From positions 581,283-645,282 of the forward strand of contig CAZQHP010000001.1 of NCBI GenBank assembly GCA_964593805.1: a stretch of DNA of 64,000 nucleotides, written 5' to 3'. The notes beneath the pieces are model-generated. The model was not told the DNA's origin. It saw only the letters and a program-made list of their open reading frames with translations, and searched no databases. This document shows, piece by piece, positions 720 through 50,366 of the stretch (positions within the stretch are counted from its first letter, which is position 1; each line of letters begins with the position of its first letter). The stretch comes from an uncultured Candidatus Saccharibacteria bacterium. Its GTDB lineage: Bacteria; Patescibacteriota; Saccharimonadia; Saccharimonadales; JBBQAJ01. The position numbers and the translations under genes were made by a program.

Positions 720-1123
720 AACGATGTTCCTTCTGAAGTTAAGCGTTTAAAAGTGGCTAGTTTGGCGCGAGCGGTCATGTCCAGCTGTTCGTTGGCCATA
801 TCTATCCGCAGGCCTCCAATGACCGAAGCATCCAAGCGGTTAGCCACATGGACGGTTTTGGCGTTTGGATAGGCAGCCTGAAGTAATTGTTTGACCTCGC
901 CGGTAACTTGACCGGTGATTTCGTGGGCAGTTACTACTTCTGCTTCCAAGACGCCATGCTCCATACGGTACTGCATTATGTCTCGCAAGATTGATTCTAA
1001 TTCGGCAGTGCGGCGCTCGGCCAGCAGGTAAGCGGCAATCTCCCTAGCCAGCAGGGCAGGGTCTGTCACATGCAGCGTCTTTTGGGCGATAGCCTCAGCC
1101 AAAATATGACGGGGTACTTTCAT
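716..1123 (-). CDS. atpH: F1 ATP synthase delta (OSCP) subunit, short form
   Basis: 135 aa; C-terminal OSCP-like LDASVIGGLRIDMANEQLDMTARAKL; lies between atpF and atpA. Confidence 0.75.
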   Translation of the reverse strand: MKVPRHILAEAIAQKTLHVTDPALLAREIAAYLLAERRTAELESILRDIMQYRMEHGVLEAEVVTAHEITGQVTGEVKQLLQAAYPNAKTVHVANRLDASVIGGLRIDMANEQLDMTARAKLATFKRLTSEGTSL

Positions 1124-1214
1124 ACAAGCTCTCCAAATCTAGCGGTATGCAGTATGCGGTAAGCGGTAAGCAAAGAAAAACCCTGCTTGCTGCTTATTGC
1201 TTGTTGCATATTGC

Positions 1215-1757
1215 TCATTTCTGGCCTTTCAGGGCTTTATCAATCAGTTTGGCGTCTTTTTTTGAATCCACTTTTTCTTCTACGATAGCTTCAGTGGCTT
1301 CAGATACCAGCCCCACGATTTCTTTTTCTAGTTTGCGTTTGGCTTGTTCGGTTTCTTCGTTTATGCGCGCTTCGGCGTCCGACAGCATAGTGTCTACTTT
1401 GCGGGCGCCAACTTTTTCGGCGTCGCGGATGATTTCGCGGGCTTCTTTTTGGCCGTTGCCGATGATTTTGTCGGCTTCAACGCGGGCGTCGCGCATAACT
1501 TGGACAACTTCGCTGTCAAGTTTGGCGCGCTCTTTTTCCAGCTTTTGGCCCATTTTGACACCGTCGTCTATGACTTTGCGGCGCTCTTCCAGCAAGCGGA
1601 CAATCGGTTTAAAAGCAAACTTTTTGAGCAGCAAAAACACCAGCACAAAAGTAATCAGCTGGATCACGAACGCGCTCAGGCTGATGCCCAGGGCGCCAAT
1701 GCCAGAGGTGGTTTCGGCCTGCGCGGCTTCTTCAGCGGCAAATACAAATGGAATCAT
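1215..1757 (-). CDS. atpF: Fo ATP synthase subunit b
   Basis: 180 aa; one N-terminal TM helix then a long charged helix (EERRKVIDDGVKMGQKLEKERAKL...); operon position. Confidence 0.8.
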   Translation of the reverse strand: MIPFVFAAEEAAQAETTSGIGALGISLSAFVIQLITFVLVFLLLKKFAFKPIVRLLEERRKVIDDGVKMGQKLEKERAKLDSEVVQVMRDARVEADKIIGNGQKEAREIIRDAEKVGARKVDTMLSDAEARINEETEQAKRKLEKEIVGLVSEATEAIVEEKVDSKKDAKLIDKALKGQK

Positions 1758-1774
1758 GTAGGTCCGTTCTCCTT

Positions 1775-2011
1775 TTATTTAATAATGAAGAGGGAAGCAA
1801 AGACCAGCAAGGCCATCAATTCCACAATTGCTACGAATACCAAGATTTGCCCCAAAAACTTAGCGGCTTCCGGGTTGCGGCCAACGGCGTTCATGAACGC
1901 GTTGCCTATAAGCCCCACGCCAATGCCCGGGCCAATCATGCCGGCGCCCAGCATGATGCCTTTGCCGACGACTTCTACGTTACCTGATAATTCTGCCAAT
2001 ATGCTAAACAT
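1775..2011 (-). CDS. atpE: Fo ATP synthase subunit c
   Basis: 78-aa two-helix proteolipid; Gly-rich helix GAGMIGPGIGVGLIG and carboxylate helix VAIVELMALLVF. Confidence 0.9.
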   Translation of the reverse strand: MFSILAELSGNVEVVGKGIMLGAGMIGPGIGVGLIGNAFMNAVGRNPEAAKFLGQILVFVAIVELMALLVFASLFIIK

Positions 2012-2054
2012 ATTCTTTACTCCTTTGATTTACTTTTTAATAATGCGCACATAC

Positions 2055-2879
2055 CTATACTCTCATCTCCTCAGCCGCAGTTTCCAGCGCATCGGTTTCA
2101 TCGTGGCCATGCGTTACTGCCAGCGAAAGATAGGTGACGGACAACATAACAAATATATAGGCTTGCAAAAGCGCTACGCCCAGTTCCAAAAACAGGAATG
2201 GGAAAGAAGTCAGCGGCGCGGCAAATTTGCCCAAATACGAAAATACCGAAATGATGATTTCGCCAATGGCAACGTTCAAAAACAACCGGAGCGCCAGGCT
2301 GAAGACGCGGATGAGTTCGTTAAACACTTCGTAGATGCCAATCAGATAAGTCAGCGGGTTCCACAGTTTGCCGGCAAAGTAATGCCGCAGGTGTTTGATA
2401 AAGCCGGATTCGCGGATTGCAAAATACTGAATCATTGTCATAGAAATGACGGAAGCCGCCAGGGTGCCGTTCAAATCAGCCGTAAAGGCTCGGAAAACCG
2501 GTTTGCCCTCAAAGGTCAGCGCTTCGCCAACGCCCGGTAGAAGTCCCAAAATGTTGCTTATGGCAATAAAGAAAAATATGGTTACAAAATACGGAGCGTA
2601 TTTGATGGCTTTGTCTCTGTCTCCCAAGCTGTTTTCCAGCACTCCAGTTATAAAATCTGTTCCAATTTCTACAAACTGCGTGATGCCGCCCTTGGGCCGA
2701 AGCGTCATGCGACGGGCAACAACAGTTAAAACCGCAATTATTAGCAGTGAACAAACCCATGCAAAAAGCATTGAGTTAGTAATTGTGAAACCATTTACTT
2801 CAAACAATCCACCAGGTGCAATATGCACGGCTGGCCCGGCTTCTTCAGTGGCAAATCGGAATAGCTGAGTACTAAGCAT
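2055..2879 (-). CDS. atpB: Fo ATP synthase subunit a
   Basis: Polytopic membrane protein with a-subunit motif LSLALRLFLNVAIGE. ATG 2879 (MLSTQLF...) preferred; the longest ORF extends to 2921. Confidence 0.85.
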   Translation of the reverse strand: MLSTQLFRFATEEAGPAVHIAPGGLFEVNGFTITNSMLFAWVCSLLIIAVLTVVARRMTLRPKGGITQFVEIGTDFITGVLENSLGDRDKAIKYAPYFVTIFFFIAISNILGLLPGVGEALTFEGKPVFRAFTADLNGTLAASVISMTMIQYFAIRESGFIKHLRHYFAGKLWNPLTYLIGIYEVFNELIRVFSLALRLFLNVAIGEIIISVFSYLGKFAAPLTSFPFLFLELGVALLQAYIFVMLSVTYLSLAVTHGHDETDALETAAEEMRV

Positions 2880-3210
2880 GCGTGTTTTTCTCCTTTTGTA
2901 GCATGTTTGGCGCTGTATCAACTTGGTCGCGCTTGACTTGTTTTATTGTATTGGCAACTACAAATACCGCGCCGCCAACAGCCAAAACAAGCGCTACCAG
3001 CGTATAAGACGGAGTAGTTTGAAAACGGTCATCCAGCTTCACGCCAATGATGACGGGGATGATCACCATGCCGGCCAGCTGCCAGCCCATGCTCATGGCG
3101 GCAGTTATAAATTGCCTGCGGGCGGCGAGCACGGTTAAAGATCGCCCAATATCGTCTTGAGCTACAGGGGCACTAGATTTCCTCTGTACGGCTGTTTTCA
3201 CCATCTCCAT
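2872..3210 (-). CDS. AtpZ/AtpI-like small membrane protein
   Basis: 112 aa, two TM helices (MSMGWQLAGMVIIPVIIGVKLD; LVALVLAVGGAVFVVA); first gene of the atp operon. Confidence 0.55.
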   Translation of the reverse strand: MEMVKTAVQRKSSAPVAQDDIGRSLTVLAARRQFITAAMSMGWQLAGMVIIPVIIGVKLDDRFQTTPSYTLVALVLAVGGAVFVVANTIKQVKRDQVDTAPNMLQKEKNTHA

Positions 3211-3259
3211 AGATTATAGCAGTTTCAAGAGACAGCCTGCAACCCGAAACTTGAGCGTT

Positions 3260-3910
3260 CTAGTGAACCCGCAGGCCAGCCGCGGCTTTGAGGCGCTGGG
3301 ATAGGCTTGTGTCCTGGCCGCCGGAACAGGCGGCAGGGTCGCTGGTTTTATTGGCTTTATCGGCGTCGTCTGGCAATGCCTTAAAACGCGCGTCTAGTGC
3401 CGTGGCATCTTCCTTGCCGTAGTTTATAAGCAGCCTATCCGTGCTCTTTATTAAGCGGTCTTGCACGCTGCGGACGGTTTGGCCATTGAGCACAAAAACC
3501 AGCTTGTTGCCATCCTGCCCGTCGGCATAAACGCCGCCGTCCGTGACGACAACTTTGTTGCCGAGCGTATAGCCCAGATTGGTGAAAAACTGGCTCCAGG
3601 TAACCCCGGGGGCGTGTACATGGACCAAGCCGGAGTTTTGGTCATGCATGTGCGCTCGCCCGCCCGCGTCGTCCGCGTCGTGCACGTCGCAGGAGGTTAC
3701 TTCTTCATAAAACGTAAAGCTTTTGAACTCATCCCTCTGGCCGTTTACGTACAGGGCAAAATTGGCATGATAGTGCACGTCATCACTTTCAAACGTGGCA
3801 AAACGGAAGGCAAACAACACAAACGCCCCCAGCAAAAACATCGCCAACCCAAACCAGCGCAAGCGAATACTTTTAGCTTTAGTTTTTTTAGTGCTTTTAG
3901 GCTCGTCCAT
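3260..3910 (-). CDS. Hypothetical membrane-anchored His-rich protein
   Basis: 216 aa; N-terminal TM (FGLAMFLLGAFVLFAF); His clusters HYHANF, AHMHDQNSGLVHVHAP. -10-like TAGACT lies 7 nt upstream of the ATG. Confidence 0.6.
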   Translation of the reverse strand: MDEPKSTKKTKAKSIRLRWFGLAMFLLGAFVLFAFRFATFESDDVHYHANFALYVNGQRDEFKSFTFYEEVTSCDVHDADDAGGRAHMHDQNSGLVHVHAPGVTWSQFFTNLGYTLGNKVVVTDGGVYADGQDGNKLVFVLNGQTVRSVQDRLIKSTDRLLINYGKEDATALDARFKALPDDADKANKTSDPAACSGGQDTSLSQRLKAAAGLRVH

Positions 3911-3938
3911 TGCTACCAGTCTAACATGCTAAAATAGC

Positions 3939-4184
3939 ATGATGGTTACGATTTATTCGGCTGTGTGGTGCGCGTTCTGTCATGCCGCCAAAGACTATAT
4001 GGACAAACTCGGCGTCAAGTACGTAGACAAAGACGTGGAAAAAGACCCTGCCTTCATGAGAGAGTCCGTAGACAAGTCCGGCCAAATGGGCATCCCGGTT
4101 ATAGACATAAACGGCACTATCATCGTGGGCTTTAATCGCCCGGCAATTGACCAAGCCCTAAAAGCCAACAAACTTGTCGGCTAG
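3939..4184 (+). CDS. Glutaredoxin-like (NrdH/YruB-type) thioredoxin-fold protein
   Basis: 81 aa; CxxC active site WCAFC; GIPVIDINGTIIVGF motif. Start may be the second ATG at 3942 (6 nt after TAAAAT). Confidence 0.8.
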   Translation: MMVTIYSAVWCAFCHAAKDYMDKLGVKYVDKDVEKDPAFMRESVDKSGQMGIPVIDINGTIIVGFNRPAIDQALKANKLVG

Positions 4185-4187
4185 CCC

Positions 4188-4222
4188 TTGATACTTGAAC
4201 CTTGATACTTGATACTTGAACC
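4188..4222. repeat. Five tandem heptamers TTGATAC/TTGAACC
   Basis: TTGATAC TTGAACC TTGATAC TTGATAC TTGAACC fills nearly the whole gap between the grx stop (4184) and the cobO ATG (4224). Confidence 0.9.
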
Positions 4223-4223
4223 C

Positions 4224-4793
4224 ATGGTGTTTGAGGATTACAAACAAAAAGACTCCGTGGTTATTGTCTATACCGGCGAAGGCAAAGGCAAAACCAGCGC
4301 CGCCGTCGGGCTGATGGCGCGGGCGCTCGGCAACCGCTGGAACGTGGCGTTTATACAATTCATCAAGCATTGGGGCGTGGGCGAACACGTGTTTATCCGC
4401 GACATCCAGCCGCTTTTCAAAGACCAGCTGTTTTTTCACAAAGGCGGCAGGGGCTTTTACAAAGCCGGCGAACTGAGCGAACAGCACATTTCGGAACAGC
4501 AGCACCAGCAGGCCGCCGCCGAAACGTATGAAATTGCGCTGAAATGTGTGATGAGCGGGGACTACGACCTGGTCATCTGCGACGAAATCAACAACGCCCT
4601 GCATGACGGCCTGATTACGCGCAAACAGTTTGAGGAACTTTTCAAACGCCGCTCGCCCAAAACCAGCCTGTGCGTTACCGGCCGGGATTTCCCAAGGCGT
4701 CTGCTAAAATACGTAGACATAGCCACCGACATGACCAAAATCAAGCACCATTTCGACGACAAATTCCTAGCCAACAAAGGCATTGATTTCTAA
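4224..4793 (+). CDS. cobO: Cob(I)yrinic acid a,c-diamide adenosyltransferase (CobA/CobO/BtuR family)
   Basis: VIVYTGEGKGKTSAAVGLMARALG P-loop, FIQFIK, DLVICDEIN, and C-terminal TDMTKIKHHFD...GIDF. ATG 4224 preferred over the track's TTG 4209. Confidence 0.8.
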   Translation: MVFEDYKQKDSVVIVYTGEGKGKTSAAVGLMARALGNRWNVAFIQFIKHWGVGEHVFIRDIQPLFKDQLFFHKGGRGFYKAGELSEQHISEQQHQQAAAETYEIALKCVMSGDYDLVICDEINNALHDGLITRKQFEELFKRRSPKTSLCVTGRDFPRRLLKYVDIATDMTKIKHHFDDKFLANKGIDF

Positions 4794-5794
4794 TGGGTGT
4801 GGTTTTTGCGGCCGCGTCAACAGCTGGTGATCTTATCAATGTGCCGGGGTGGCACTGGGGTGTGCTGATTGGCTGGTTCGCGCTGCTTCTCATCGTGGAT
4901 ATTTTGGTTTTGCACCGCAAAGACCATTCGCCCACGCTACACGAAGCCACCGTGCAAAGTTTGGTTTGGATAGGGCTTGGCGTGGGCTTGGGACTACTGT
5001 TTTGGCCACTGTACGGCGCTAGCGCGTCGGTGCAGTATTTTAGCGGTTACCTGATTGAAAAAAGCTTGAGCATAGACAATGTGTTTGCTTGGTCAGTATT
5101 GCTGGGGTACTTCAAGATTCCCAAAAAATACCAGCACCGGGTGCTGTTTTGGGGTGTGTTTGGAGCGCTTGTCATGCGGGCAATCTTTATCTTTGCAGGA
5201 ATTGCCGTACTGGAGCGATTCGAGCCAGCGCTCATAATTTTCGGCGGCATTTTGCTGTACAGCGGCTACAAATTCTTCCGTAACCACGAGGATTTGGAGT
5301 TCGACCCTACCAAAAGCCACATGCTCAAATTCTTCCGTCGCATCATACCCGTTAGTCATCATCTCGATGGACACAAACTTTTCACGTACGAAAATGGCAA
5401 ACGGGTGGCCACCATGCTGTTTATCGCCCTGCTGGCGATTGAAATGACCGACGTTATTTTTGCCATCGACAGCGTGCCGGCTATATTGGCGATTTCGCGC
5501 GATCCTTTCATTGTTTTCTCCAGTAATGCGGCGGCTATTTTGGGACTGCGCGCACTGTACTTTGTTTTTGACAAAATCAAAGAGCGCTTTTGGCTACTCA
5601 ACAAAGCGCTGGGTCTGCTGCTGGTTGGAGTTGGCGTAAAAATGATAATCAGCCCGCACACGCTATTCGGCCGCGGTTGGCTGGGCATAGAGATTCCGAC
5701 GGGTCTGAGCCTGGGGCTTATTGCCACCACTTTGGTAGCGACGGTAATACTTTCTAGCATTTTCGACCCGCCCAAAACCACCAAAGAAGACTAA
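4793..5794 (+). CDS. TerC/Alx family integral membrane protein
   Basis: 333 aa polytopic; YFSGYLIEKSLSIDNVFAW and AIDSVPAILAISRDPFIVFSSN motifs. TAATG overlap with cobO. Confidence 0.85.
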   Translation: MGVVFAAASTAGDLINVPGWHWGVLIGWFALLLIVDILVLHRKDHSPTLHEATVQSLVWIGLGVGLGLLFWPLYGASASVQYFSGYLIEKSLSIDNVFAWSVLLGYFKIPKKYQHRVLFWGVFGALVMRAIFIFAGIAVLERFEPALIIFGGILLYSGYKFFRNHEDLEFDPTKSHMLKFFRRIIPVSHHLDGHKLFTYENGKRVATMLFIALLAIEMTDVIFAIDSVPAILAISRDPFIVFSSNAAAILGLRALYFVFDKIKERFWLLNKALGLLLVGVGVKMIISPHTLFGRGWLGIEIPTGLSLGLIATTLVATVILSSIFDPPKTTKED

Positions 5795-5845
5795 ATAGTT
5801 GCTTTTTAGTTGCTTTGTTGGACTAATATGTTGTAGTCTCTTACC

Positions 5846-7432
5846 ATGCCTCATTCTCCCATTGCTCCTATTGCTCCTGTGGATAAAGCCAAAGGGGAGC
5901 TTGCCCCTGGCGAAAGCACCGAAGCTAGATATATAGAAGATCTAGAGATAGCTGAATTTATGGCGGAGATTAGCCCAGATATTCAAATTGCGGGCGAGCA
6001 GTGGGACGCCCTGGATAATCTGGCGAGCCGGGCAACTGACCCCAATTACATTGCAGAAGTTCGCGAAGCTAAGGACCAAGCTCAAGGAGAAGAGTCCGTC
6101 AGCGACCGTCACAGCAGACGAAAACAAAACGCAGCTTCTGAACGGGCCATTAAGCGTCTTTTACACGAAACCGTTTTAAAAGCACGCCAGTGCGTAACCT
6201 GGAAAGTGTATGGTAATGCAGCACAGCAGGAATTAATCAGCCAAGAATTAGAAATGGAAAAAAATGCCATTGAAACAGCCGAGGAATCAGGCACGGTTGA
6301 TGTTCGTTTTCAAGCATCGAGCCAGCTTTTTTTTGAATATTACGGCATCTTCATGAACGCCTTGGCGGCGGAAGATACAGTGCTTATCAAGTTGGCTCAA
6401 TGGGTGAGCTACAGTAACGACCGAATTATTCACTTGCTTGAATGGATGCAAAGCGAAGACTGCGAGCAAAGAGGCGAGCATAAACCGCTGCTTGAAGCGC
6501 TATCTCGAATAATCAACGACCCGGGAATTACCCCGTTTATTACCACGATTCTAGATGAGCTGACTGATAAGCCGCATTTATTCCAACGTTCCTTTGTAGA
6601 CAAGTTTGCTAAAACCGCCGAAACGAATCATCAGGATGATCCAGATGCGTCCTGGTTCCGCTTTCTGCCTGTTGTCTTAGCGGAATCAGGTGTTGAAATT
6701 CCTGCGGATGAGCTCGCTCTGGTTTTACAAAAAATAGGCTACGGTGATCTGCCCGTTACACTACAGCGGCGAATTGCCGAGCAGCACGGCGAAGCCGTCA
6801 AAAGCACGCGCAAAGGCTATCAGACTTTTTTGCAAAAGTTTAATCATCCCGAGCGTTTTTTGGTATGGGACGCTTTCAGCCAATATGAAGACTCCGCAAA
6901 CCACAACAATAGGACGCGAAGCAGTCGGGTCAGCCCAAAAAGAACTTTGGAGTTAAGCCCGCCCGTAGAGCGTCTCCCCAACGTAACAGCCGCAGTTGTA
7001 GTATTAAAGAGTCCTGACGGCTACATTACTCAAACTATTAGGTCGGATAAAGAGGATATTGCCGATATATTGTGCGATTCAAAGATCGCGCAAGAATATT
7101 TGGATAAATACAACTCGGATTCTAGGATTAGAGAAGACTTGGTCGTGATGCTCAAGAGTATTGTTGAAAAGCCAAGAGGTCATGGCTGCAGCAAGCTCAG
7201 GCCTAAAGTTAGATTTAGCCCTTCAGAAGGCGCCCGCCGCCCAGAACCTATCTGGCATTTGGCGCCTCGTCATAGACATTTTGAAAATGGGCTGGGTCCT
7301 TTGGCCGATAAAACACGCATTTACTACATAGTTGTGTCTAACGGAGACGGTACGGAAACTATAGGGCTGCTTGATATCACCAATAAGAGCGGGCATGAAA
7401 GCCTGCAGCGCGGAGAGTTTAAGCGCACTTAG
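5846..7432 (+). CDS. Hypothetical 528-aa protein, possible RelE/ParE-like C-terminal region
   Basis: Long uninterrupted ORF with no domain I recognise. C-terminus is ...WHLAPRHRH...KTRIYYIVVSNGDGTETIGLLDITNKSGHE. Confidence 0.6.
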   Translation: MPHSPIAPIAPVDKAKGELAPGESTEARYIEDLEIAEFMAEISPDIQIAGEQWDALDNLASRATDPNYIAEVREAKDQAQGEESVSDRHSRRKQNAASERAIKRLLHETVLKARQCVTWKVYGNAAQQELISQELEMEKNAIETAEESGTVDVRFQASSQLFFEYYGIFMNALAAEDTVLIKLAQWVSYSNDRIIHLLEWMQSEDCEQRGEHKPLLEALSRIINDPGITPFITTILDELTDKPHLFQRSFVDKFAKTAETNHQDDPDASWFRFLPVVLAESGVEIPADELALVLQKIGYGDLPVTLQRRIAEQHGEAVKSTRKGYQTFLQKFNHPERFLVWDAFSQYEDSANHNNRTRSSRVSPKRTLELSPPVERLPNVTAAVVVLKSPDGYITQTIRSDKEDIADILCDSKIAQEYLDKYNSDSRIREDLVVMLKSIVEKPRGHGCSKLRPKVRFSPSEGARRPEPIWHLAPRHRHFENGLGPLADKTRIYYIVVSNGDGTETIGLLDITNKSGHESLQRGEFKRT

Positions 7433-17942: not shown

Positions 17943-19235
17943 ATGGCGGACACTGACTACAAAGTAAAAGACATTGGCCTGGGGGACTGGGGCCGGACAG
18001 AAATAACCCTGGCAGAAAATGAAATGCCGGGCCTGATGGCTTTGCGCGAAGAGTTTGGAACATCAAAACCGCTTAAAGGCGCCAGGATTGCCGGTTCTAT
18101 ACACATGACCATCCAAACCGCCGTGCTGATTGAAACCTTGCAAGCGCTGGGTGCCGTGGTCCGCTGGTCTTCCTGCAATATCTTTTCCACTCAAGACCAC
18201 GCCGCCGCGGCGATTGCCGTGGCTGGTACGCCGGTATTTGCCTGGAAGGGCGAAACCGAGGACGAATACTGGTGGTGCGTGGAGCAGACTTTGAAGTTTG
18301 GCGGGCAGGGCCCCAACATGATTTTGGACGACGGCGGAGACCTGACCGCGCTGGTCCACGACAAACACCCAGACCTGCTCAAAGACATCAAGGGCGTAAC
18401 AGAAGAAACCACCACTGGTGTGAAGCAATTAAACGAATGGATGAAAGAAGACAAACTCAAACTGCCGGCCATAAACGTCAACGACAGTGTTACAAAGTCC
18501 AAGTTTGACAATCTGTACGGCTGCCGAGAATCACTAGTAGACGGCATAAAGCGCGCCACCGATGTCATGCTGGCCGGCAAAGTTGCCGTAGTTGCCGGCT
18601 ACGGAGACGTTGGCAAAGGCAGCGCCCAGTCGCTGCGGGCTTTTGGCTGCCGCGTGCTTATCACAGAGATAGACCCCATCTGCGCTCTGCAGGCGCTAAT
18701 GGAAGGCTATGAAGTCGTGACCATGGACGAAGCTGCGCCAAAAGCAGATATATTTGTGACAGCAACCGGCTGCAAGGACATTATCACCCTTGAGCACATG
18801 AAACAGATGAAAGACACGGCAATTGTCTGCAACATCGGCCATTTTGACCACGAAATCCAGATGAAAGAGCTCAACGACTTCGCTGGAAACAAGAAAAAAG
18901 AAATCAAACCGCAAGTGGATTTGTACACCATGCCATCCGGACGCCGTCTGATAGTTCTTTCAGAAGGCCGCTTGGTAAACCTGGGCAACGCCACCGGCCA
19001 CCCATCTTTTGTAATGTCTAATTCGTTTTCCAACCAAGTCTTAGCCCAGATAGAAATTTTCACCAAAGACTATAAAGTCGGCGTGCACCGTTTGCCTAAA
19101 GAACTAGATGAAAAGGTAGCCGCCGTCCATGTAGCCGCCCTAGATGCCAAACTAACCAAACTCACCGATTCCCAAGCCAAATACTTGGGCGTTCCAGCCA
19201 AAGGCCCCTTCAAAGCCGACCATTACCGCTACTAG
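17943..19235 (+). CDS. ahcY: Adenosylhomocysteinase
   Basis: 430 aa; [14 protein letters not shown]-binding [44 protein letters not shown]. Confidence 0.95.
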
Positions 19236-20350
19236 GTTACTATTTCTGATAATCGGTTGGCTGACTCGGCTTTTTTGATTTCTTGGGCGACTCTTTGGCC
19301 GATGCTGATGTTTTCTCCATGCAGGTAGCCAGAGTAGGGCGTGAACTGCGTCCCGGGACTGCCGGGGATGCGCAGGCTGACGTCAAACACCAGTAGCTCT
19401 TCTGTGGGCGGGCCGGCGGTGATGGCACCCTGCAAGGCAAACGGGCCAATCATGCCGGGAGGATAGTGCTGTTTGACTGCTCCTACAAAGGCTTCCCCGG
19501 CCGCGAAAGCCTTTTCTAGCAAAGATTCTTTGATGGTTACAGCTTGGTGTCCATTTTCTATGTACTGAGGCCGAACGTGTTTGAGCACTTCTATTTGCTC
19601 CGGCGCGGTTAGGCGTAGCAAGCCGTCAATGTTGGTTTGGCGGCGGGTGTCCGTGCCCATTAGCTCCACTTCGCCGTCTAGCGGCGAGTAAAAATAATTC
19701 AGGTTCAGCTGCGGGCCGACCACGAATTCTTCAATCACGGCCGCTTGCAAAGACTCCGGGGTGATTACGCCTTGGTCAATCAATTTCTGGGAGGCTGCTT
19801 TGTATTCTTCATAGCTGCTGGCCAGGAAAAAGGCGCGTTCGTAGCCGCGAGATGCTTCGGCGGTTTTGACGATCACCAGCCGGTCAATTTCACTTGGCTG
19901 CTTGAACTGCTTGGGCAGTTTTATGCCGGCCTGTTCCAGCAAAAAGTATTGGTTTTTTTCTTCATTGCGTTCTTCTTTGCGCACTAGATGGCGATTGCCG
20001 AAAATCGGCACATTGAAATTATTTTCTACTTCGTTATAGTCGCAGTACACCCAAAAATACCGGCTATGAATAAAGATGACGTTGAGTTTGCGAAGTTGTT
20101 CCTGAATTTCAGGTTTGGTTACGTCCGCAAAACTATCTACCACAATCACATGGTCTACGCAGCCTTTGCCATCCCTAGTTTTGAAATGCTTGCTGTAAGT
20201 CGCTTCGCGGCCTTTTTGGGCCACCACGACGGTTTCAAAACCTTCGGCCTTGGCTCCGCGGCAGACATCCAGCGCGCTGTGGCCGCCCAGCGAGCCAATC
20301 CGCAGATTGGCCGTGTCGTAGCAGGCCAGAGTCTTTGCAACGTCAATCAC
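19232..20350 (-). CDS. PurP-family ATP-grasp protein, divergent paralog
   Basis: 372 aa collinear with archaeal PurP: [61 protein letters not shown]. Confidence 0.8.
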
Positions 20351-21362
20351 TCAGCACCTCGTCCAGCCTGTCTTGTTCTATAGCTATTTTGATTTCCCGA
20401 GCCACCCGGCGGCCGGTGCTCATAGGTTCGTCGTAGCGCAGGTCGGTGTAGGGAGAACCTTTGACATACGGGTTAGTGCCAGCCACAATCCGGGCGGAGA
20501 TTTCAAACACGTAAAATTCCAGTTCCGGCGTAACAATAGTCTCCAAGCAAAAGGGGCCAAACAGGCCCCTTGGTTCAAGTTCTTGCGAAGTCTTAATCAC
20601 TGCTTCGCCCATGGCAAACATTTTGGGTAGCAAAGATTCGCGGACAACTACCGTGAGGTTGCCCATGATGTTATAAGAAGACTCGATGTTCAAATCCAGC
20701 TGGTCTTTGGCGCCAATCCGGCCTATTGAGTCCACGTTGGTTTCATAACGCCTATCCAGGCTCATAATTTCCAGCTCTTTGGTGAGCGGCGAGTAGAAAT
20801 AGTGTATATACAGCGGCGCGCCCACGATGTACTGCTGGATTATGTAGCGTTTGTTGGGGTGTTCTTTGATTTTGCGCCTAAAATCTTCTGGGGTGCTGGC
20901 CAGAAAATAGCCTTTGCCGCCTTTGGCGCCAAAAAACTTGATGATGACCGGACCGTCTATGTCTTCAGCTTTTTCATAAATCCTAGGGACGGTCAGACCG
21001 GCTTTGCCCAGCCAATCGCGCTGCTTGGTACGGTCTTCTTCCCAGGCCAGAATCCGCTTGTTGCCAAAGTATTTTACTTTTGATTTATTGAGCGCATCAA
21101 GCCCAAAAGCGTCAAAAAATGAACCGTGCGGGATGAGGATAACGTTTTGCTCAATCATCTTTTGCTCGTGCTTGATGATGTCGGGGTAAGCATTCAGGTC
21201 AACAATTTCATCCGCCACCTTGTAGGATTCGTATGGCTGGGCCGTGCCTTTAAGGCAATAGACCACGTTTGCAAAGCCTTCATCGCGCGCGCCTTTCAGA
21301 ATTTGCAGCGCCGAATGGCTGCCTAGGGTGCCAATTTTGAAATTTTTTATACTTTTTTTCAT
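20343..21362 (-). CDS. purP: 5-formaminoimidazole-4-carboxamide ribonucleotide (FAICAR) synthetase, archaeal type
   Basis: 339 aa aligning end to end with M. jannaschii PurP from memory: IGTLGSHSALQILKGARDEGF, IPHGSF, FGNKRILAWEEDR, HYFYSPL, RESLLPKMF, GPFCLE, GRRVAREIK. Confidence 0.9.
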   Translation of the reverse strand: MKKSIKNFKIGTLGSHSALQILKGARDEGFANVVYCLKGTAQPYESYKVADEIVDLNAYPDIIKHEQKMIEQNVILIPHGSFFDAFGLDALNKSKVKYFGNKRILAWEEDRTKQRDWLGKAGLTVPRIYEKAEDIDGPVIIKFFGAKGGKGYFLASTPEDFRRKIKEHPNKRYIIQQYIVGAPLYIHYFYSPLTKELEIMSLDRRYETNVDSIGRIGAKDQLDLNIESSYNIMGNLTVVVRESLLPKMFAMGEAVIKTSQELEPRGLFGPFCLETIVTPELEFYVFEISARIVAGTNPYVKGSPYTDLRYDEPMSTGRRVAREIKIAIEQDRLDEVLSD

Positions 21363-21403
21363 GCGCTTCTTTCTTCTAGGCTATGAATTTGAGCCAGATA
21401 TAT

Positions 21404-21421
21404 CAGGTGATTATACACCTG
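21404..21421. promoter_or_regulatory. Perfect palindrome arms CAGGTG-N6-CACCTG bracketing the purP -10 box
   Basis: Plus strand reads CAGGTG ATTATA CACCTG. The central hexamer is TATAAT on the minus strand, ~48 nt upstream of purP ATG 21362. GATATATC palindrome is adjacent (21396-21403). Confidence 0.5.
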
Positions 21422-21581
21422 TAGCTGGCCGGGGGCAAAATCCTGTGCAGACACTTGCAAGTTTGCCCGCATGTCTCATAATGGATGTAGCTAAAAGGAG
21501 GCAGGCCATCCAGACACGTTGGCCGATTTTGACACCATGATTACCAAAACATTGAAATTTAGCTTGTAGGCTTTTGAGACC

Positions 21582-22310
21582 ATGCCGGACAAGACTTACG
21601 ATTTTACAGGGCTCAGGGCAATCTTTTTTAATGGCACGTTGGCTAAGTCTCCCGAACCAAGCCATACGGATTTGCTTATAAATATCAGCCAGAGCATCAT
21701 GGAAAAACACGGCATCAGTGTAGAGGTAATCCGCACCATAGACCACGACATTGCCACCGGCGTATATCCGGACATGCGCGAACACGGCGCCAAGGCCGAC
21801 GAGTGGCCCGAAATCTACAAACGGGTTGAAGCCGCCAACATATTGGTGCTGGCGGGGCCAATTTGGTTGGGCGACAACAGTTCCATGACCAAAAAAATTA
21901 TTGAACGGCTCTATGCTTGTTCGGCACTGTTAAACAAAGCCGGCCAATACGCTTACTACGGCAAAGTTGGCGGTTCGCTGATTACCGGCAACGAAGACGG
22001 CATAAAACACTGCACCATGAACACGCTCTACAGCTTGCAACATTTAGGCTGCGTTATTCCACCCCAAGCCGATGCCGGCTGGATAGGCGAGGTTGGTCCC
22101 GGCCCAAGCTACGGCGACAAAATGCCAGACGGCAAGCGTGCCGGTGTGGACAGCGACTTCACCAACCGCAACACTACGTTCATGACCTGGAACCTCATGC
22201 ATCTGGCCAAAATGCTGCAAGACGCTGGCGGCATACCGGCGCACGGCAATCAGCGCAGCAAATGGGACGCCGGCGCCCGTTTTGACTTCCAAAACCCCGA
22301 ATACCGCTAG
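21582..22310 (+). CDS. Flavodoxin-like NAD(P)H-dependent FMN reductase family protein
   Basis: 242 aa; LRAIFFNGTLAKSP, ANILVLAGPIWLGDNSS, ITGNEDG typical of flavodoxin-fold reductases. Confidence 0.7.
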   Translation: MPDKTYDFTGLRAIFFNGTLAKSPEPSHTDLLINISQSIMEKHGISVEVIRTIDHDIATGVYPDMREHGAKADEWPEIYKRVEAANILVLAGPIWLGDNSSMTKKIIERLYACSALLNKAGQYAYYGKVGGSLITGNEDGIKHCTMNTLYSLQHLGCVIPPQADAGWIGEVGPGPSYGDKMPDGKRAGVDSDFTNRNTTFMTWNLMHLAKMLQDAGGIPAHGNQRSKWDAGARFDFQNPEYR

Positions 22311-26745: not shown

Positions 26746-28161
26746 CTAACCAGCTTTTGGGCCGTCGGAGCCGTGGGAATAGGCCAGCAGGCCGTTGCCG
26801 TTTCTAGCCCAGACATCCAGAACTGGCTGGACTATTTTCCAGCCGGCTAGCACTTCGTCCGCCGTGGCAAACAGCGTGTGGTCGCCCTTGACGGCGTCTA
26901 CCAAAACTCGTTCGTAGGCATCCGGATGACCGTGGTTATCAAAAGTCTTTTCGTAGTCAAAGTCCATCAGCGCTGTTTCTGTAACTTGCGTAAAACCTGG
27001 TTTTTTGACTTTCAGGCGCAGTTCAATGCCCTCATTAGGCTGGATTCTAAAAGTCAGCCGGTTGTATTCGCCGTTATTATCCGCCCTAAATTGCAGGGTT
27101 ATGTCGGTACGTTTTTGAGCCAGCGCCTTGCCGGTAATCAGCTTCATGGGCACTTTACTCCAGCGCTGGTTATCTATATATAGGTCTAGCGCCGCGTAAG
27201 TTTCCGTGGTTGAGTTAGCTTTGCCCACTTGTTTTTTGTAGCCTTTATACTGGCCACGTACGGCTCGTTCGGAAATCTTATTTGGCGGCACCGGTTTGAT
27301 TTGGCTAAACAAAAGCTGTTTGTTTTTGTGTATTTGGCCGCTTTCCAATTTTGCCGGCAGTTCCATTGTCACCAACGCCAAAAGCTGCAGCAGATGGCTC
27401 TGTATCAGGTCGCGCAGGGCGCCAGTTTGTTCGTAAAAGTTCACGCGATTTTCTATGCCGATTTTTTCGGTGGCTTTTATCATGATTGAATCCACGTTCT
27501 GATGGTTCCAGATAGGTATAAAAATCGGGTTGGCGTAGCGGAACTGCAAAATATCTTGGACCGTTTCTTTGGCCAGATAGTGGTCTATTCGGAAAATCTG
27601 GTCTTCCGTGAAATGCTGGCCGGTTTCTTCCACCAGCAGCCGCGCCGATGCCAAATCATAACCGAACGGCTTTTCAACCAGCAGCCGGGTGCTGGCCACG
27701 CCGTGCTGGCAGCTGGCGTTCATGCCACTTTCGCCCATAAAGCGTACAATCGGACCAAATACCTGCGGCGGGATAGACAGGTAGTACAGCCGGTTCATGC
27801 ATACGCCCTGGGTGTCTTCCAGTTTGTTGAGTCGCGCGAGCAGTTTGTCGTACTCTTTGGGATTAGTAACATCCATATGGTGCATTTGCAAAGACTCGCC
27901 CATCTTGAGCACCGCGGCAGGGTCGCAGATATTATCTATTTCATTTACACACAATTCCACGTCATCCAGCAGTTGTTTTTTGGTTATATTTTGGCGGCTA
28001 ACACCTAAAATCAAGGTTTTAGGGTGCAGCAAATTGTCTTTTAGGAGATGGTATAGGGCAGGCAGCAGCTTGCGCTGAGCCAGGTCTCCCGTAATTCCAA
28101 AGATAACGATTATAGCCGGTTCCATTGCCGGCGATTTTTTGGCAGTTTTTGCGCCCGTCAT
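26746..28161 (-). CDS. zwf: Glucose-6-phosphate 1-dehydrogenase
   Basis: FGITGDLAQRKLLPALY, EKPFG, RIDHYLAKE motifs; 471 aa. Confidence 0.95.
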   Translation of the reverse strand: MTGAKTAKKSPAMEPAIIVIFGITGDLAQRKLLPALYHLLKDNLLHPKTLILGVSRQNITKKQLLDDVELCVNEIDNICDPAAVLKMGESLQMHHMDVTNPKEYDKLLARLNKLEDTQGVCMNRLYYLSIPPQVFGPIVRFMGESGMNASCQHGVASTRLLVEKPFGYDLASARLLVEETGQHFTEDQIFRIDHYLAKETVQDILQFRYANPIFIPIWNHQNVDSIMIKATEKIGIENRVNFYEQTGALRDLIQSHLLQLLALVTMELPAKLESGQIHKNKQLLFSQIKPVPPNKISERAVRGQYKGYKKQVGKANSTTETYAALDLYIDNQRWSKVPMKLITGKALAQKRTDITLQFRADNNGEYNRLTFRIQPNEGIELRLKVKKPGFTQVTETALMDFDYEKTFDNHGHPDAYERVLVDAVKGDHTLFATADEVLAGWKIVQPVLDVWARNGNGLLAYSHGSDGPKAG

Positions 28162-29093
28162 ACGTTTTTGAGGCTGTTAGCGTCCGCGTCTTCGGAGGTT
28201 TTGTTGACCGCATGCCCACCAAACTGATTACGCAGGGCAGCCAGAAACTTAGTGGCAAAGGAAGTGTTGCCCGCCATTGATTCCGCTCGGCGGTCAATTG
28301 AAGCCTGTATTACTCGGAAATCTACGCCTTTTTGTTTGGCCAGCTCGGACGCCCACTGGGCTTCGCCCAGCATGTTGACTTTTCCATCTATGCCTTCAAG
28401 TTTGCGGTTTTCGGCAAAAATAGACACCGCCAGCCCGTTCAAAAATGATTCCACGACCGCTCCGTTTTGCCACACTCCAGCTAATTTTGCGTAATCAATC
28501 GGCGGAAAGGGGCTATGCTCCATCAACTCAAAACCTTCGGCAAAAGCCTCCATCATGCCGTATTCTATGGCGTTATGCACCATTTTTACATAATGGCCGG
28601 CACCGATAGGCCCGAAGTGCCCATAGCCGCCTACTTGGGCCAAATCTTTCAGAATTGGTTCAAGTAAATCGTAAGTTCCTTCGTCTCCGCCAACCATCAT
28701 GGAATAACCAGACTTTGCTCCCACAATTCCGCCGCTCACGCCGATATCCACAAACGAAACAGCTTTGGCGGCAGCAAGTTTGCCGTGCTCTATGGTTTGC
28801 TCAAACCGGCTGTTGCCACCGTCTATCAACACCGAACCAGCGGGCAGGGTTTTTAACCAAGCGCCGATTTCATCTGCCACAAACTGGCTGGGAATCATCA
28901 ACCAGACAATTTTTTGCTCAGGCAGGGCGTCCAGCATTTCCTGTCTGTTTTGCACAACCACAACGCCTCGGGCGCTAGCCTCGGCGGCATCATATTCGCT
29001 GGGATCAATACCAACCACCTCGTGGCCTTTTTCTACCAAGCGAGCCGCCATGTTGCCGCCCATTTTGCCGAGTCCTACCATGCCAATTTTCAT
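28158..29093 (-). CDS. gnd: 6-phosphogluconate dehydrogenase (decarboxylating), short form
   Basis: MKIGMVGLGKMGGNMA Rossmann start, GVSGG, GAGHYVKMVHNAIEYG; overlaps zwf and pgl. Confidence 0.9.
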   Translation of the reverse strand: MKIGMVGLGKMGGNMAARLVEKGHEVVGIDPSEYDAAEASARGVVVVQNRQEMLDALPEQKIVWLMIPSQFVADEIGAWLKTLPAGSVLIDGGNSRFEQTIEHGKLAAAKAVSFVDIGVSGGIVGAKSGYSMMVGGDEGTYDLLEPILKDLAQVGGYGHFGPIGAGHYVKMVHNAIEYGMMEAFAEGFELMEHSPFPPIDYAKLAGVWQNGAVVESFLNGLAVSIFAENRKLEGIDGKVNMLGEAQWASELAKQKGVDFRVIQASIDRRAESMAGNTSFATKFLAALRNQFGGHAVNKTSEDADANSLKNV

Positions 29094-29770
29094 TTAGTGT
29101 CTCCTAGCTGGTCATTATATACGTAGGCTTCCGGTAAATCCCAGAATATTTTTGACGGCAGCCGCTCAAACGATTTTTTGTTGGCCTGCAAGTCCTTCAG
29201 CGCCCCACGTTTTGCCGCGCCAAACGCGAACACATAGGCCACGTCTACTTTTTTCAAGGCTTGGCGGGTCAGAGTGATGCGCACGAACGGCGAGGATTCG
29301 TAGCCAACAACTTGCGCAGTAGTTTTTTGCACCGCCGGGCTGTTTGGCAGCATGCCTGCCGTATGACCGTCCGCCCCCACCCCAAACTGCCCGATAATCA
29401 CGTCGGCGGCGTCTATTGCCACTTTGGTCAGCTTGGCATAATCAGCAACTGTCTGCCTAAGCGGTTTTTCGGGCTTGGTCATTACTGGCATGGCGTACAT
29501 GCCAGTAAAATCGCACCCCGCGTCCAGCAGTTGCTGCCAGTTAGAGTCGGCGTGGCTGACCGGTCCAAAACGTTCGTCCATGAGCATAATAGCCAGGTTT
29601 TCGGTGTTGCCGTTTTTTTGGAGCGCTTTTAATACCTGCGCTTCGGCCGCAATCCCAGAGCCGCCGCAAACCAGCCACAGCACCCTTTTGTTGCGCTTCA
29701 ACTCTTTTGTCAAACGAGCGGAAACGACTTTTATCCCTTTAGCGGAATCTTTAGTCTTCACGAACTCCAT
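29090..29770 (-). CDS. pgl: 6-phosphogluconolactonase
   Basis: LWLVCGGSG, MDERFGP, GVGADGHTAGMLP motifs; first gene of the pgl-gnd-zwf operon. Confidence 0.85.
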   Translation of the reverse strand: MEFVKTKDSAKGIKVVSARLTKELKRNKRVLWLVCGGSGIAAEAQVLKALQKNGNTENLAIMLMDERFGPVSHADSNWQQLLDAGCDFTGMYAMPVMTKPEKPLRQTVADYAKLTKVAIDAADVIIGQFGVGADGHTAGMLPNSPAVQKTTAQVVGYESSPFVRITLTRQALKKVDVAYVFAFGAAKRGALKDLQANKKSFERLPSKIFWDLPEAYVYNDQLGDTK

Positions 29771-48623: not shown

Positions 48624-50366
48624 ATGGCAGGAGTTGAAGCCGCAGAACAACAAAACGCGTTAATTTCTGTATTCGACAAAACAGGTATTGAAGATTTTGC
48701 AGAAGGTTTGGTTGATTTGGATTGGCAAGTAATTGCTTCCGGGGGCACGTATAAAAAAATAACGGATGCGCATATACCGGCTGTTGATGTTGGTGATTTT
48801 GTAGGCGGCGGTGCTATTCTTGGACACAAAGTTGTCACACTTTCGCGAGAAGTTGCGGGCGGTTTGCTGGCAGAGCGGCGCAGTGCGGCAGAAATGGAAG
48901 AAATGCGCAAGCTTGGCATGCCGATTATTGGTCTTTTATGTCAGGATTCTTACCCATTGGAAGCTGAAATAGCCGATCCAAAAGCAACGCCTGCAAGCAT
49001 TTTAGCTCAATCTGACATTGGCGGCCCAACAATGCTGCGAGAAGCAGCTAAAGGCGGGCGCATTTTATTTGATCATAGCCTGGATTTGCGTGATGTTATA
49101 GAAGCAGCTCAGACGGGACGAATTGTGCTGTCCGTGCCAGAGCAAAGGGAGTTGGTACTGGAGTGGTTGCGAGCAGGGCGGCCACATGAAGCGGAATTTG
49201 TTAACAGGCTTGCGAACAGAGCAGTCTATGAAGCGGGCAGGTATGGTTTGATTGAAGCAAAGTATTGGCTGGGTAGCGAAATGGTTGGCTTTATTGCGCT
49301 GAAGCATTCCAACACGAAGTATGGTGAAAATCCTCAGCAAGAAGAAGCAGCGTTTTACGCAGATAACCGCGTGAACATAGACCCGCTCGGGTTGGACCAA
49401 TTTGAGCACGTACAAGGCATGGAAAAAGGCTACGTAGGCATGACAGACCTCGATCGTTTACTACAAACCACTACACACATTGCAGCTGGTTTTGAGCGCA
49501 ACTTTGGAAAAGTCCCGGCAATGGCTGCTGGAGTTAAGCACGGCAATGCGTGTGGCGCTGGTATAGCAGAAACACATGCAGAAGCGGCTAAAAAAATGCT
49601 GGAGGGTGACGACAGGGCTATATTTGGCGGAGTTGTTATGATAAATGGCGTAATTGATAAAGAAGTTGCCGAAGTGTTGATGTCTCATATGATGGAAGGT
49701 GACAACAAGCGAATACTCGACGGCGTAATTGGTGCCGGTGTGACTGATGAAGCTCTTGAAATGTTGAGTCGTAAAAAATTGCGGGTTGTTGTTAACCCGG
49801 CTCTTGGCAACTTAGGCGAAACCTCGCTTGATACCAACAGACGCATGCGCCCTGTACGCGGCGGCATGTTGGCGCAGCCAAACTACACCTTCGTGCAAGA
49901 CCTCTCGGCTGAGCACATGGAACAACATGGAGAAATCACTGAGCAACAAAAACGTGACATGATTCTTGGTTGGGCAGTTGGCTCTACCAGCAACAGCAAT
50001 ACCATTACACTAGTTAAAGATGGAATGGTCATTGGCAACGGTGTAGGACAACAGGACCGTGTCGGTGCCGGCCAGCTCGCAATTTTGCGCACTTCAACTA
50101 AACTACCGAGATTTAGAAGGCGTGGGGGCAAACTTTTCATGACTACCGAACTTGATGCCCAAAAACTTGATGGTGCGGTTGCATACAGCGACAGCTTCTT
50201 CCCATTCCCCGATGGCCCCATGATCCTTGCCAAAGCTGGAGTCAAGGCAATACTAACTTCTAGCGGCTCAGTTGGCGACAAACAAGTTATTGACACTTTG
50301 ACTAAGGCTGGCGTGGCTGTAATGATGGTGCCCGACAAAATTGGTCGTGGATTCTACGGTCACTAG
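48624..50366 (+). CDS. purH: Bifunctional AICAR transformylase / IMP cyclohydrolase
   Basis: MGS-like N-domain ALISVFDKTG...ASGGT...DIGGPTMLREAAK; AICARFT KYGENPQQ and VKHGNACG. ATG 48624 with GCGAGG SD. Confidence 0.9.
   Translation: MAGVEAAEQQNALISVFDKTGIEDFAEGLVDLDWQVIASGGTYKKITDAHIPAVDVGDFVGGGAILGHKVVTLSREVAGGLLAERRSAAEMEEMRKLGMPIIGLLCQDSYPLEAEIADPKATPASILAQSDIGGPTMLREAAKGGRILFDHSLDLRDVIEAAQTGRIVLSVPEQRELVLEWLRAGRPHEAEFVNRLANRAVYEAGRYGLIEAKYWLGSEMVGFIALKHSNTKYGENPQQEEAAFYADNRVNIDPLGLDQFEHVQGMEKGYVGMTDLDRLLQTTTHIAAGFERNFGKVPAMAAGVKHGNACGAGIAETHAEAAKKMLEGDDRAIFGGVVMINGVIDKEVAEVLMSHMMEGDNKRILDGVIGAGVTDEALEMLSRKKLRVVVNPALGNLGETSLDTNRRMRPVRGGMLAQPNYTFVQDLSAEHMEQHGEITEQQKRDMILGWAVGSTSNSNTITLVKDGMVIGNGVGQQDRVGAGQLAILRTSTKLPRFRRRGGKLFMTTELDAQKLDGAVAYSDSFFPFPDGPMILAKAGVKAILTSSGSVGDKQVIDTLTKAGVAVMMVPDKIGRGFYGH

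Follow-up and report, generated by a model that had tools for sequence, protein, structure and literature searches.

The window analysed here, a 64,000-nucleotide stretch of DNA from an uncultured Candidatus Saccharibacteria bacterium (contig CAZQHP010000001.1, positions 581,283 to 645,282), carries two overlapping genes of the PurP family of ATP-grasp proteins, designated PurP-A and PurP-B. Both open reading frames (ORFs) agree exactly with the public gene models of the 776,748-bp metagenome-assembled source contig (ENA/NCBI). They are present exactly as the initial annotation described them, with lengths of 339 and 372 aa and an overlap of 8 nt, and the observation of two PurP-family ORFs at this place is confirmed and lies far beyond chance. 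The features of the pair are as follows.

20343..21362, minus strand: PurP-A, 339 aa, ATG start; PurP cluster Ib / PurP II-type ATP-grasp protein, presumed catalytic subunit
19232..20350, minus strand: PurP-B, 372 aa, GTG start; PurP cluster II / PurP III-type ATP-grasp protein, presumed partner of A
20343..20360, minus strand: A/B junction with the 8-nt overlap GTGATTGA, in which the GTG of PurP-B lies within the last codons and the stop of PurP-A

A GAGG Shine-Dalgarno-like motif, read directly from the sequence, is located 6 nt 5' of the PurP-B GTG. Together with the overlap, this motif represents a signature of translational coupling, and the pair most likely forms a two-gene operon with translationally coupled frames.

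Family assignment and fold

Each protein comprises, across its full length, a DUF1246 domain followed by a DUF1297 domain in Pfam (E-values of 1.2e-39 and 5.9e-71 for PurP-A, and of 4.4e-39 and 9.6e-63 for PurP-B). All NCBIfam models named "formate--phosphoribosylaminoimidazolecarboxamide ligase" match both proteins, with E-values of 4e-123 for A and 4e-95 for B. Among the solved structures, PurP-A is best matched by PF1517 of Pyrococcus furiosus (2r84; 55% identity, E 1.5e-109), with MJ0136 in second place (E 3e-101). For PurP-B, MJ0136 (E 9.8e-82) ranks far ahead of PF1517 (E 1e-43). Both proteins are collinear over their full length with the archaeal PurP structures 2r7k and 2r84, and they share 32% identity with each other (E 2e-59). 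The AlphaFold (AF2) model of PurP-B, with a predicted local distance difference test (pLDDT) score of 89, superimposes on the Methanocaldococcus jannaschii PurP (2r7k/2r7m) with template modelling (TM) scores of 0.88–0.92 and root-mean-square deviations of 2.1–2.3 Å.

Membership of another ATP-grasp family (PurK, PurT or biotin carboxylase) was considered and rejected. The PurK profile reaches an E-value of 4e-5, as compared with about 1e-123 for PurP. In a fold search with the PurP-B model, 2r7m and 2r7k are followed by other PurPs and then by biotin carboxylases, PurK and PylC, so that the other ATP-grasp families rank far below PurP. The Pfam, NCBIfam and full-length PDB matches bear out the initial description of two collinear, archaeal-type PurP proteins of DUF1246/DUF1297 architecture, for which other families are marginal candidates. 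The motif blocks listed in that description are also present, except that PurP-B reads LGGHSAL instead of LGSHSAL.

Subfamily signatures

PurP proteins have been divided into cluster Ia or PurP I (MJ0136), cluster Ib or PurP II (PF1517), cluster II or PurP III (PF0421), and a small PurP IV group (TK0431) (PMC3261824; PMC6486802). Residue diagnostics and roles were taken from Brown et al. (PMC3261824), in MJ0136 numbering, and were scored on the window proteins, 240 homologues (120 A-type and 120 B-type) and 182 diverse sequences. According to these diagnostics, cluster I carries a (K/R)GG(K/R)G loop at positions 161–165 together with Asn258, and cluster II carries a glycine-poor loop that is two residues longer, together with His258 (PMC3261824). 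His27 and Arg314, which contact the formyl group, are kept in both clusters alike (PMC3261824).

In PurP-A, His16, Lys142, the P-loop K147-G-G-K-G151, Glu207, Asn235, Ser243 and Arg291 map to His27, Lys156, residues 161–165, Glu230, Asn258, Ser266 and Arg314 of MJ0136, respectively. An equivalent of Ser94 is also found, and all four of His27, Arg314, Ser94 and Ser266 are thus present. The KGGKG loop of PurP-A recurs as GG-K/R-G in 120 of 120 A-type homologues and is missing from PurP-B. Asn258 contacts the carboxamide of 5-aminoimidazole-4-carboxamide ribonucleotide (AICAR); its equivalent, Asn235 of PurP-A, is likewise kept in 120 of 120 A-type homologues and in 100% of the type I sequences.

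PurP-B retains His24, Lys162, Ser276 and Arg327. Its loop, as judged against the aligned KFPGARGG--RGYF, is two residues longer and glycine-poor, and the ER motif within this longer loop is kept across all type II representatives. Furthermore, the positions of Asn258, Glu230 and Glu310 are occupied in PurP-B by His268, Gln238 and Asp323, respectively. The histidine at position 258 occurs in all 120 B-type homologues and in 100% of the 106 type II sequences. The A- and B-specific residue states are invariant or nearly so in the 120 homologues of each type, and the dichotomy also holds among diverse representatives of the whole family. Ser266, His27, Arg314 and the ATP-grasp Lys156 are conserved in both types.

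Since the signatures, the tree described below and the structure matches agree, we assign PurP-A to PurP II (cluster Ib) and PurP-B to PurP III (cluster II), an ancient archaeal pair. The initial picture of a gene accompanied by a divergent paralogous copy is replaced by one of two anciently diverged subfamilies, and the window pair is, as far as its sequences indicate, a bacterial member of a known archaeal two-gene system from the candidate phyla radiation (CPR). Three family representatives (P0368, P0370 and P0383) combine His258 and the long loop with Glu230, the type I state. They branch beside the type I clade in the tree and may be intermediate forms between the PurP types.

Phylogeny and co-inheritance

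A neighbour-joining tree of 182 sequences separates type I from type II with a bootstrap value of 100, and the same split also parts the archaeal paralogues. PurP-A is located in the type I clade that contains PF1517, and PurP-B in the His258 clade, where the Saccharimonadia B proteins form a clade of their own (bootstrap 99). CPR sequences are nested among archaeal ones in both the A and the B subtree, in keeping with the inter-domain transfer raised by the initial annotation. The Saccharimonadia sequences adjoin the same DPANN loci in both subtrees, with weak bootstrap values of 52–58%. Each of the two proteins is nearer to archaeal proteins (63–68% identity) than to the other (32%).

The distance matrices of A and B are correlated in a mirror-tree comparison (r = 0.70), and none of 999 permutations gave a value as high. 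Moreover, the order A followed by B on one strand is found in 53 of the 54 loci with both genes, across CPR and DPANN. Congruent A and B trees nested among archaeal sequences suggest that the pair moved as a unit. These sequence relationships suggest a passage from DPANN-like archaea to an ancestor of the Saccharimonadia, and transfer from DPANN-like archaea to CPR bacteria possibly happened more than once.

In comparisons with six Saccharimonadia relatives, both genes show a proportion of nonsynonymous differences (pN) of 0.11–0.20, and the synonymous sites are saturated (pS of 0.77–0.93). Within Saccharimonadia, PurP-B is conserved at least as strongly as PurP-A.

Distribution

The exact window proteins and their nearest relatives (68–88% identity) come from metagenome bins of Candidatus Saccharimonadales / Patescibacteria. 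More than 7,500 homologues were found for each of A and B at E<=1e-10, and the whole PurP family comprises 596 clusters at 50% clustering (E<=1e-3, among 1.84 billion representatives). When one genome was scanned for each GTDB species, the B-type gene was found in at least 587 genomes. Among the matches listed, Saccharimonadia proteins are 70–83% identical to PurP-B, and the next best share 57–68% identity. In archaea, the latter belong to DPANN (Woesearchaeota, Nanoarchaeia, Undinarchaeota and Naiadarchaeum), Thermoplasmatota, Methanosarcinales-labelled bins, Methanofastidiosum and Methanolliviera. The same 57–68% tier also includes other CPR classes (Peregrinibacteria/Peribacteria, Gracilibacteria and unclassified Patescibacteria) and one Spirochaetota-labelled contig.

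On the basis of 1,403 complete genomes, PurP was described as "only present in archaeal genomes" (PMC6486802). Given the CPR distribution of the pair, this description no longer holds. Our literature search found no paper discussing PurP or DUF1297 in CPR bacteria. The window proteins are already named by database annotation, however, and the system is not categorically new. The novelty attached to the pair by the initial annotation is diminished, as the two genes are routine in sister genomes and in other CPR classes often lie next to purH. Finding purH together with PurP II and PurP III is likewise commonplace among Saccharimonadia and further CPR lineages, and the combination was already known from Methanosarcinales.

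Two further loci bear on the taxonomic range. A 5.5-kb contig with a Chlamydiae label (L011, CAJCIR010000005.1) carries a pair that is 72% identical to that of the window and falls inside the Saccharimonadia clade; this contig is probably mis-binned. A complete 1.9-Mb chromosome (L015, OY969576.1, 'uncultured bacterium MFD04463.bin.1.146') carries a Saccharimonadia-type A-B pair at 70% identity, and its size would be unusually large for Saccharimonadia.

Gene neighbourhoods

All Saccharimonadia loci examined have A directly 5' of B on the same strand, with the frames overlapping or abutting. The closest relative (L007) has the order FMN-reductase, A-B, ahcY-pfkB, as in the window. In other loci, the pair is located near purine genes. 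It is divergent from purC-purB-prs-folD and beside purA, purK, purE, purM and purL in L003, and it lies near purA and guaA in L001 and L004. Similarly, it follows purE-purK / purC-purB / purN in L012 and precedes purF-purN-purD in L015. Four DPANN loci (L017, L018, L022 and L023) have the arrangement purE-purC-purB-A-B. A full-length purH stands directly 5' of A on the same strand (purH-A-B) in seven loci whose label is Peregrinibacteria, Peribacteria, Gracilibacteria or unclassified Patescibacteria, and purN is often a few kb away. This purH is canonical in all catalytic motifs of both domains.

A and B are 0.6–3.4 kb apart in some loci. The intervening ORFs are unrelated to one another, and a conserved third component between the two genes was consequently rejected. 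In two archaeal loci (L022, 4878-5546; L024, 988-1677), HAD hydrolases are encoded between the A and B genes, and a HAD-family phosphatase also occurs within the pur cluster of the window, between purK and purE (56805-57464). This may reflect a recurrent association of a nucleotide phosphatase with PurP and pur genes.

An A-B pair in an apparent non-CPR bacterium was found at positions 1-7100 of a 2.74-Mb contig with a Spirochaetota label (L050, CAWCLF010000001.1). There it ends a same-strand run of an APH-family phosphotransferase, an ABC ATPase, a solute-binding protein and two permeases. The gene content of this run hints at uptake, phosphorylation and formylation, that is, at salvage of the AICA-riboside type.

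In the window itself, genes for a PfkB kinase and ahcY (Pfam, NCBIfam) are convergent with the pair, and a CTAG at 19232-19235 is common to the stop codons of PurP-B and ahcY. This layout, including the distance of 27 kb to the pur cluster, agrees with the initial description. On the other side, a divergent intergenic region is common to PurP-A and the FMN-reductase gene and contains the following promoter-like match.

21410..21438, minus strand: best match to a sigma-70-like promoter, TTGCCC-17-TATAAT; consensus scan, 10 of 12 matches

This element lies about 48 nt 5' of the PurP-A start and is a resemblance to the consensus only. Control of the operon by a ZTP or purine riboswitch was rejected, as Rfam gave no match in the upstream region (21300-21650) at gathering thresholds or at E<=1.

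Purine genes of the window

The purine cluster of the window extends over 48.6-63.5 kb and contains purH, purM, purB, purC, purK, purE, an FTCD_C/FchA-like gene, folD, purF, purN and purD. The profile matches confirm the purN, folD and fchA-like genes that had been reported beside a full-length purH.

48624..50366, plus strand: purH (AICAR transformylase / IMP cyclohydrolase), 580 aa; both Pfam domains; 27 kb from the PurP pair

The window PurH aligns over its full length with the Mycobacterium tuberculosis PurH (3zzm) and carries insertions; its NCBIfam score is 307 bits, where the cut-off is 402. The motifs of the AICAR transformylase (AICARFT) domain, KH, GxGQxxR and SDxFFPF, are intact. 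In the inosine monophosphate (IMP) cyclohydrolase (IMPCH) domain, the equivalents of the catalytic Tyr, Asp and Lys137 are kept, and GRVKTLHP is replaced by GHKVVTLSRE. This variant, GH(K/R)VVTLSRE, with Val at the position of Lys66, occurs in at least 90% of 120 PurH homologues. Hence the view of a bifunctional purH with the motifs of both domains stands for the two domains and the transformylase motifs, but the cyclohydrolase motif is non-canonical. On this sequence comparison, the window PurH is assigned to a divergent, Saccharimonadia-wide subfamily.

The window thus contains an extensive set of genes for de novo purine synthesis, comprising purF, purD, purN, purM, purK, purE, purC, purB and purH; no purL was seen within it. 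De novo purine capacity has been called uncommon among Patescibacteria (2026 preprint, 10.64898/2026.09.16.751625). At 57465-58593, the genes purE, fchA and folD are tightly packed, with an overlap of about 50 nt between the purE and FchA-like ORFs and of 4 nt between fchA and folD. Directly 5' of purH on the same strand are a UmuC/Pol V-like gene (47271-48557) and a small ORF (46879-47274) that overlaps its start and that we take, without a profile scan, to resemble UmuD/LexA-type peptidases. Elsewhere in the window, at 26746-29770, lie zwf, gnd and pgl of the oxidative pentose-phosphate pathway.

Proposed function

Previous work provides the framework for a functional reading. FAICAR (5-formamidoimidazole-4-carboxamide ribonucleotide) synthetase activity has so far been proven for PurP I (MJ0136) alone (PMC3261824; PMC6486802). 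Archaeal clusters Ib and II always co-occur and are often adjacent, and cluster II never occurs without Ib (PMC3261824, PMC6486802). Crystals of PF1517 bind ATP and AICAR (PMC6486802), and a hetero-hexamer of PurP II and PurP III was speculated by Cruz et al. Taken together with the features of the window, the balance tips modestly towards PurP-A and PurP-B being the two subunits of a formate/ATP-dependent AICAR formylating enzyme that would work alongside PurH. We infer its substrates, complex and physiological role from the observed subfamily identity, conservation, synteny and co-inheritance.

The proposal that A and B act together, probably as a hetero-oligomeric ATP-grasp ligase, is based on the overlap with its Shine-Dalgarno-like motif, the nearly uniform gene order, the correlated distance matrices and the co-occurrence in archaea. 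By analogy with the M. jannaschii PurP, ATP would activate formate through formyl phosphate, and the formyl group would be moved onto the 5-amino group of AICAR to yield FAICAR. The IMP cyclohydrolase domain of PurH would then close FAICAR to IMP. A role at the AICAR step is suggested by the placement of the pair between purB, whose product makes AICAR, and purH, whose product consumes FAICAR. PurP-A is the probable catalytic subunit, as it contains every substrate contact of the characterised enzyme. PurP-B may provide a specialised second active site or serve as a required structural or regulatory partner, with the formyl and phosphate contacts apparently kept and the ATP loop and carboxamide contact re-modelled.

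The pair would constitute a folate-independent route to purine C2, parallel to the transformylase half of PurH, which depends on 10-formyl-tetrahydrofolate. The window purH would both consume FAICAR and supply the folate-dependent route in parallel, a link suggested by the purH-A-B synteny of other CPR lineages. Such a route could be useful to folate-scavenging CPR bacteria, and it is plausible since Peribacteria make nucleotides de novo but have no folate biosynthesis (PMC4736985). The initial statement that two routes to purine C2 are encoded is a reasonable supposition rather than a firm annotation, because activity is known for PurP I alone and the NCBIfam cut-offs are missed.

In a more ambitious form of the proposal, PurP II and PurP III would be subunits of one obligate heteromeric FAICAR synthetase, transferred as a unit between DPANN and CPR and working with PurH on formate in folate-scavenging cells. 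We regard this form as tentative and would not yet expect it to hold in full. Nevertheless, an obligate heteromer would explain why each archaeal protein alone was inactive. A bolder variant would have the His258-type subunit perform a distinct chemical step of its own.

Several observations weigh against a formylating enzyme of two subunits. When assayed in vitro, PF1517 (PurP II) and PF0421 (PurP III) of P. furiosus did not act as FAICAR synthetases (PMC3261824, PMC6486802), and since PF1517 has the formyl- and phosphate-contact residues, these are necessary but not sufficient (PMC3261824). The best NCBIfam scores are 411 bits for PurP-A (NF009779, cut-off 580) and 319 bits for PurP-B (NF009780, cut-off 556). 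Every NCBIfam match of the two proteins falls under the equivalog cut-offs (482-603 bits), and neither is thereby scored as an equivalog of FAICAR synthetase (EC 6.3.4.23). The earlier annotation as FAICAR synthetases accordingly holds at the level of the PurP family and goes beyond the evidence at the level of activity. The substrate-contact residues are complete in PurP-A and Lys156 is kept in both proteins, but PurP-B is without the glycine-rich ATP loop, and the Ser94 phosphate contact is gone from the Saccharimonadia B proteins, which have Arg or Tyr instead. The pathway has no gap, as the transformylase motifs of PurH are intact and the presence of purN, folD and fchA shows that folate one-carbon units are used in any case. 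A formate source or transporter, sought as pyruvate formate-lyase (PFL), FocA, fhs, purU and purT, was not found within the window. In Thermoplasmatota (L020, L025, L026, L028, L030, L033, L035 and others), B is found without an A-type gene within +-6 kb. Finally, the 150 best family representatives, of up to 477 aa, included no Rosetta-stone fusion of A and B.

Alternative explanations

The adjacency of A and B on the same strand and their 32% identity could also be read as a recent tandem duplication, with the second copy diverging and now redundant or decaying. This reading is extremely improbable and is already refuted by the phylogeny and the signatures. The two proteins lie on opposite sides of the bootstrap-100 split, and each is closer to archaeal proteins than to its neighbour. 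Decay of the second copy is ruled out in the same manner, as PurP-B has invariant class-specific residues and its pN remains as low as that of PurP-A at saturated pS. An unlikely explanation, though one with more in its favour, is that the two proteins are independent enzymes, A being a stand-alone FAICAR synthetase and B catalysing a different purine reaction. PurP-B would then use another acyl or formyl donor or acceptor, or act as the alternative IMP cyclohydrolase that has been proposed for Crenarchaeota and Pyrococci, an idea raised by Brown et al. (PMC3261824). PurP-B has an invariant set of its own (His258, Gln230 and Asp310) and an Arg/Glu-rich loop, which fits a changed specificity better than a purely structural role. 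The lack of an adjacent A-type gene in Thermoplasmatota and the non-canonical Lys66 motif of the Saccharimonadia PurH point in the same direction. However, neither PF1517 nor PF0421 was active by itself (PMC3261824), and the canonical PurH cyclohydrolase encoded directly 5' of the pair in Peregrinibacteria/Gracilibacteria leaves no need for a second one there. The co-occurrence, fixed order, coupling and correlated evolution of A and B also exceed the usual pattern of genes that merely share a pathway.

Slightly less probable again is an explanation that retains AICAR's conversion into FAICAR and places it in salvage or detoxification, acting on AICAR (ZMP) or on imported AICA-riboside. Korarchaeum cryptofilum keeps the pair without the de novo pathway (PMC3261824). 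The proximity to purA and guaA, and not to de novo genes, in L001 and L004, the kinase and complete ABC importer preceding the pair on the same strand in L050, and the convergent PfkB gene, which is nucleoside-kinase-like, in the window and L007 are all consistent with such a role. In many loci, by contrast, the pair stands among de novo genes (purE-purC-purB-A-B, purH-A-B, L003, L012 and L015), and the window genome itself encodes de novo synthesis. The links to a kinase or a transporter are isolated cases, and pfkB is on the opposite strand. The two-subunit formylating enzyme acting in de novo synthesis is consequently the explanation that we prefer.

Comparison with known systems

PF1517 (PurP II; PDB 2r84-2r87) resembles PurP-A in its P-loop, Asn258, His27, Ser94, Ser266 and Arg314, in length (334 versus 339 aa), and in always being accompanied by a cluster II gene. 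Unlike PF1517, PurP-A occurs in a mesophilic CPR bacterium and is translationally coupled, as predicted from the junction, to its partner. PF0421 (PurP III), which has no solved structure, shares with PurP-B the longer glycine-poor loop, His258, His27, Arg314 and a Ib partner. It differs from the Saccharimonadia B proteins, which lack Ser94 and form a separate clade with nearest archaeal relatives at 63–68% identity. MJ0136 (PurP I; PDB 2r7k-2r7n) has the fold, domain architecture and formyl contacts of the pair and is 48% identical to A and 43% to B. It is a single gene product in hosts without the PurH transformylase or tetrahydrofolate, whereas the window has two genes, PurH and folate enzymes.

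In possessing a full-length PurH, the window is unlike Pyrococcus and similar to Methanosarcinales. The combination of purH, PurP II and PurP III was reported in 10 Methanosarcinales genomes (PMC6486802). These genomes also have purN and folates, and the hosts are archaea. A dual-route logic akin to that proposed for PurH and the PurP pair is known from E. coli, where PurN, a transformylase that depends on folate, and PurT, an ATP-grasp ligase that depends on formate and ATP, perform the same step. This step, the formylation of GAR, introduces C8 instead of C2, and PurT, whose activity is proven, consists of one polypeptide.

Implications

The puzzle of PurP II and PurP III dates from the structures of 2008, with proven activity limited to PurP I, and in many archaea no enzyme has been assigned to the final steps of purine synthesis. 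The pair is now seen to be widespread and strongly conserved in CPR bacteria, in several lineages of which it lies within purH or purB operons. With this occurrence, PurP loses its status as an archaeal signature, and a gene transfer between domains, linking the ultra-small DPANN and CPR radiations, becomes probable. The mesophilic, operon-encoded versions offer, in the co-expression of both subunits, a natural experiment. If the pair formylates AICAR as proposed, the finding would also bear on the nucleotide autonomy of some Saccharimonadia.

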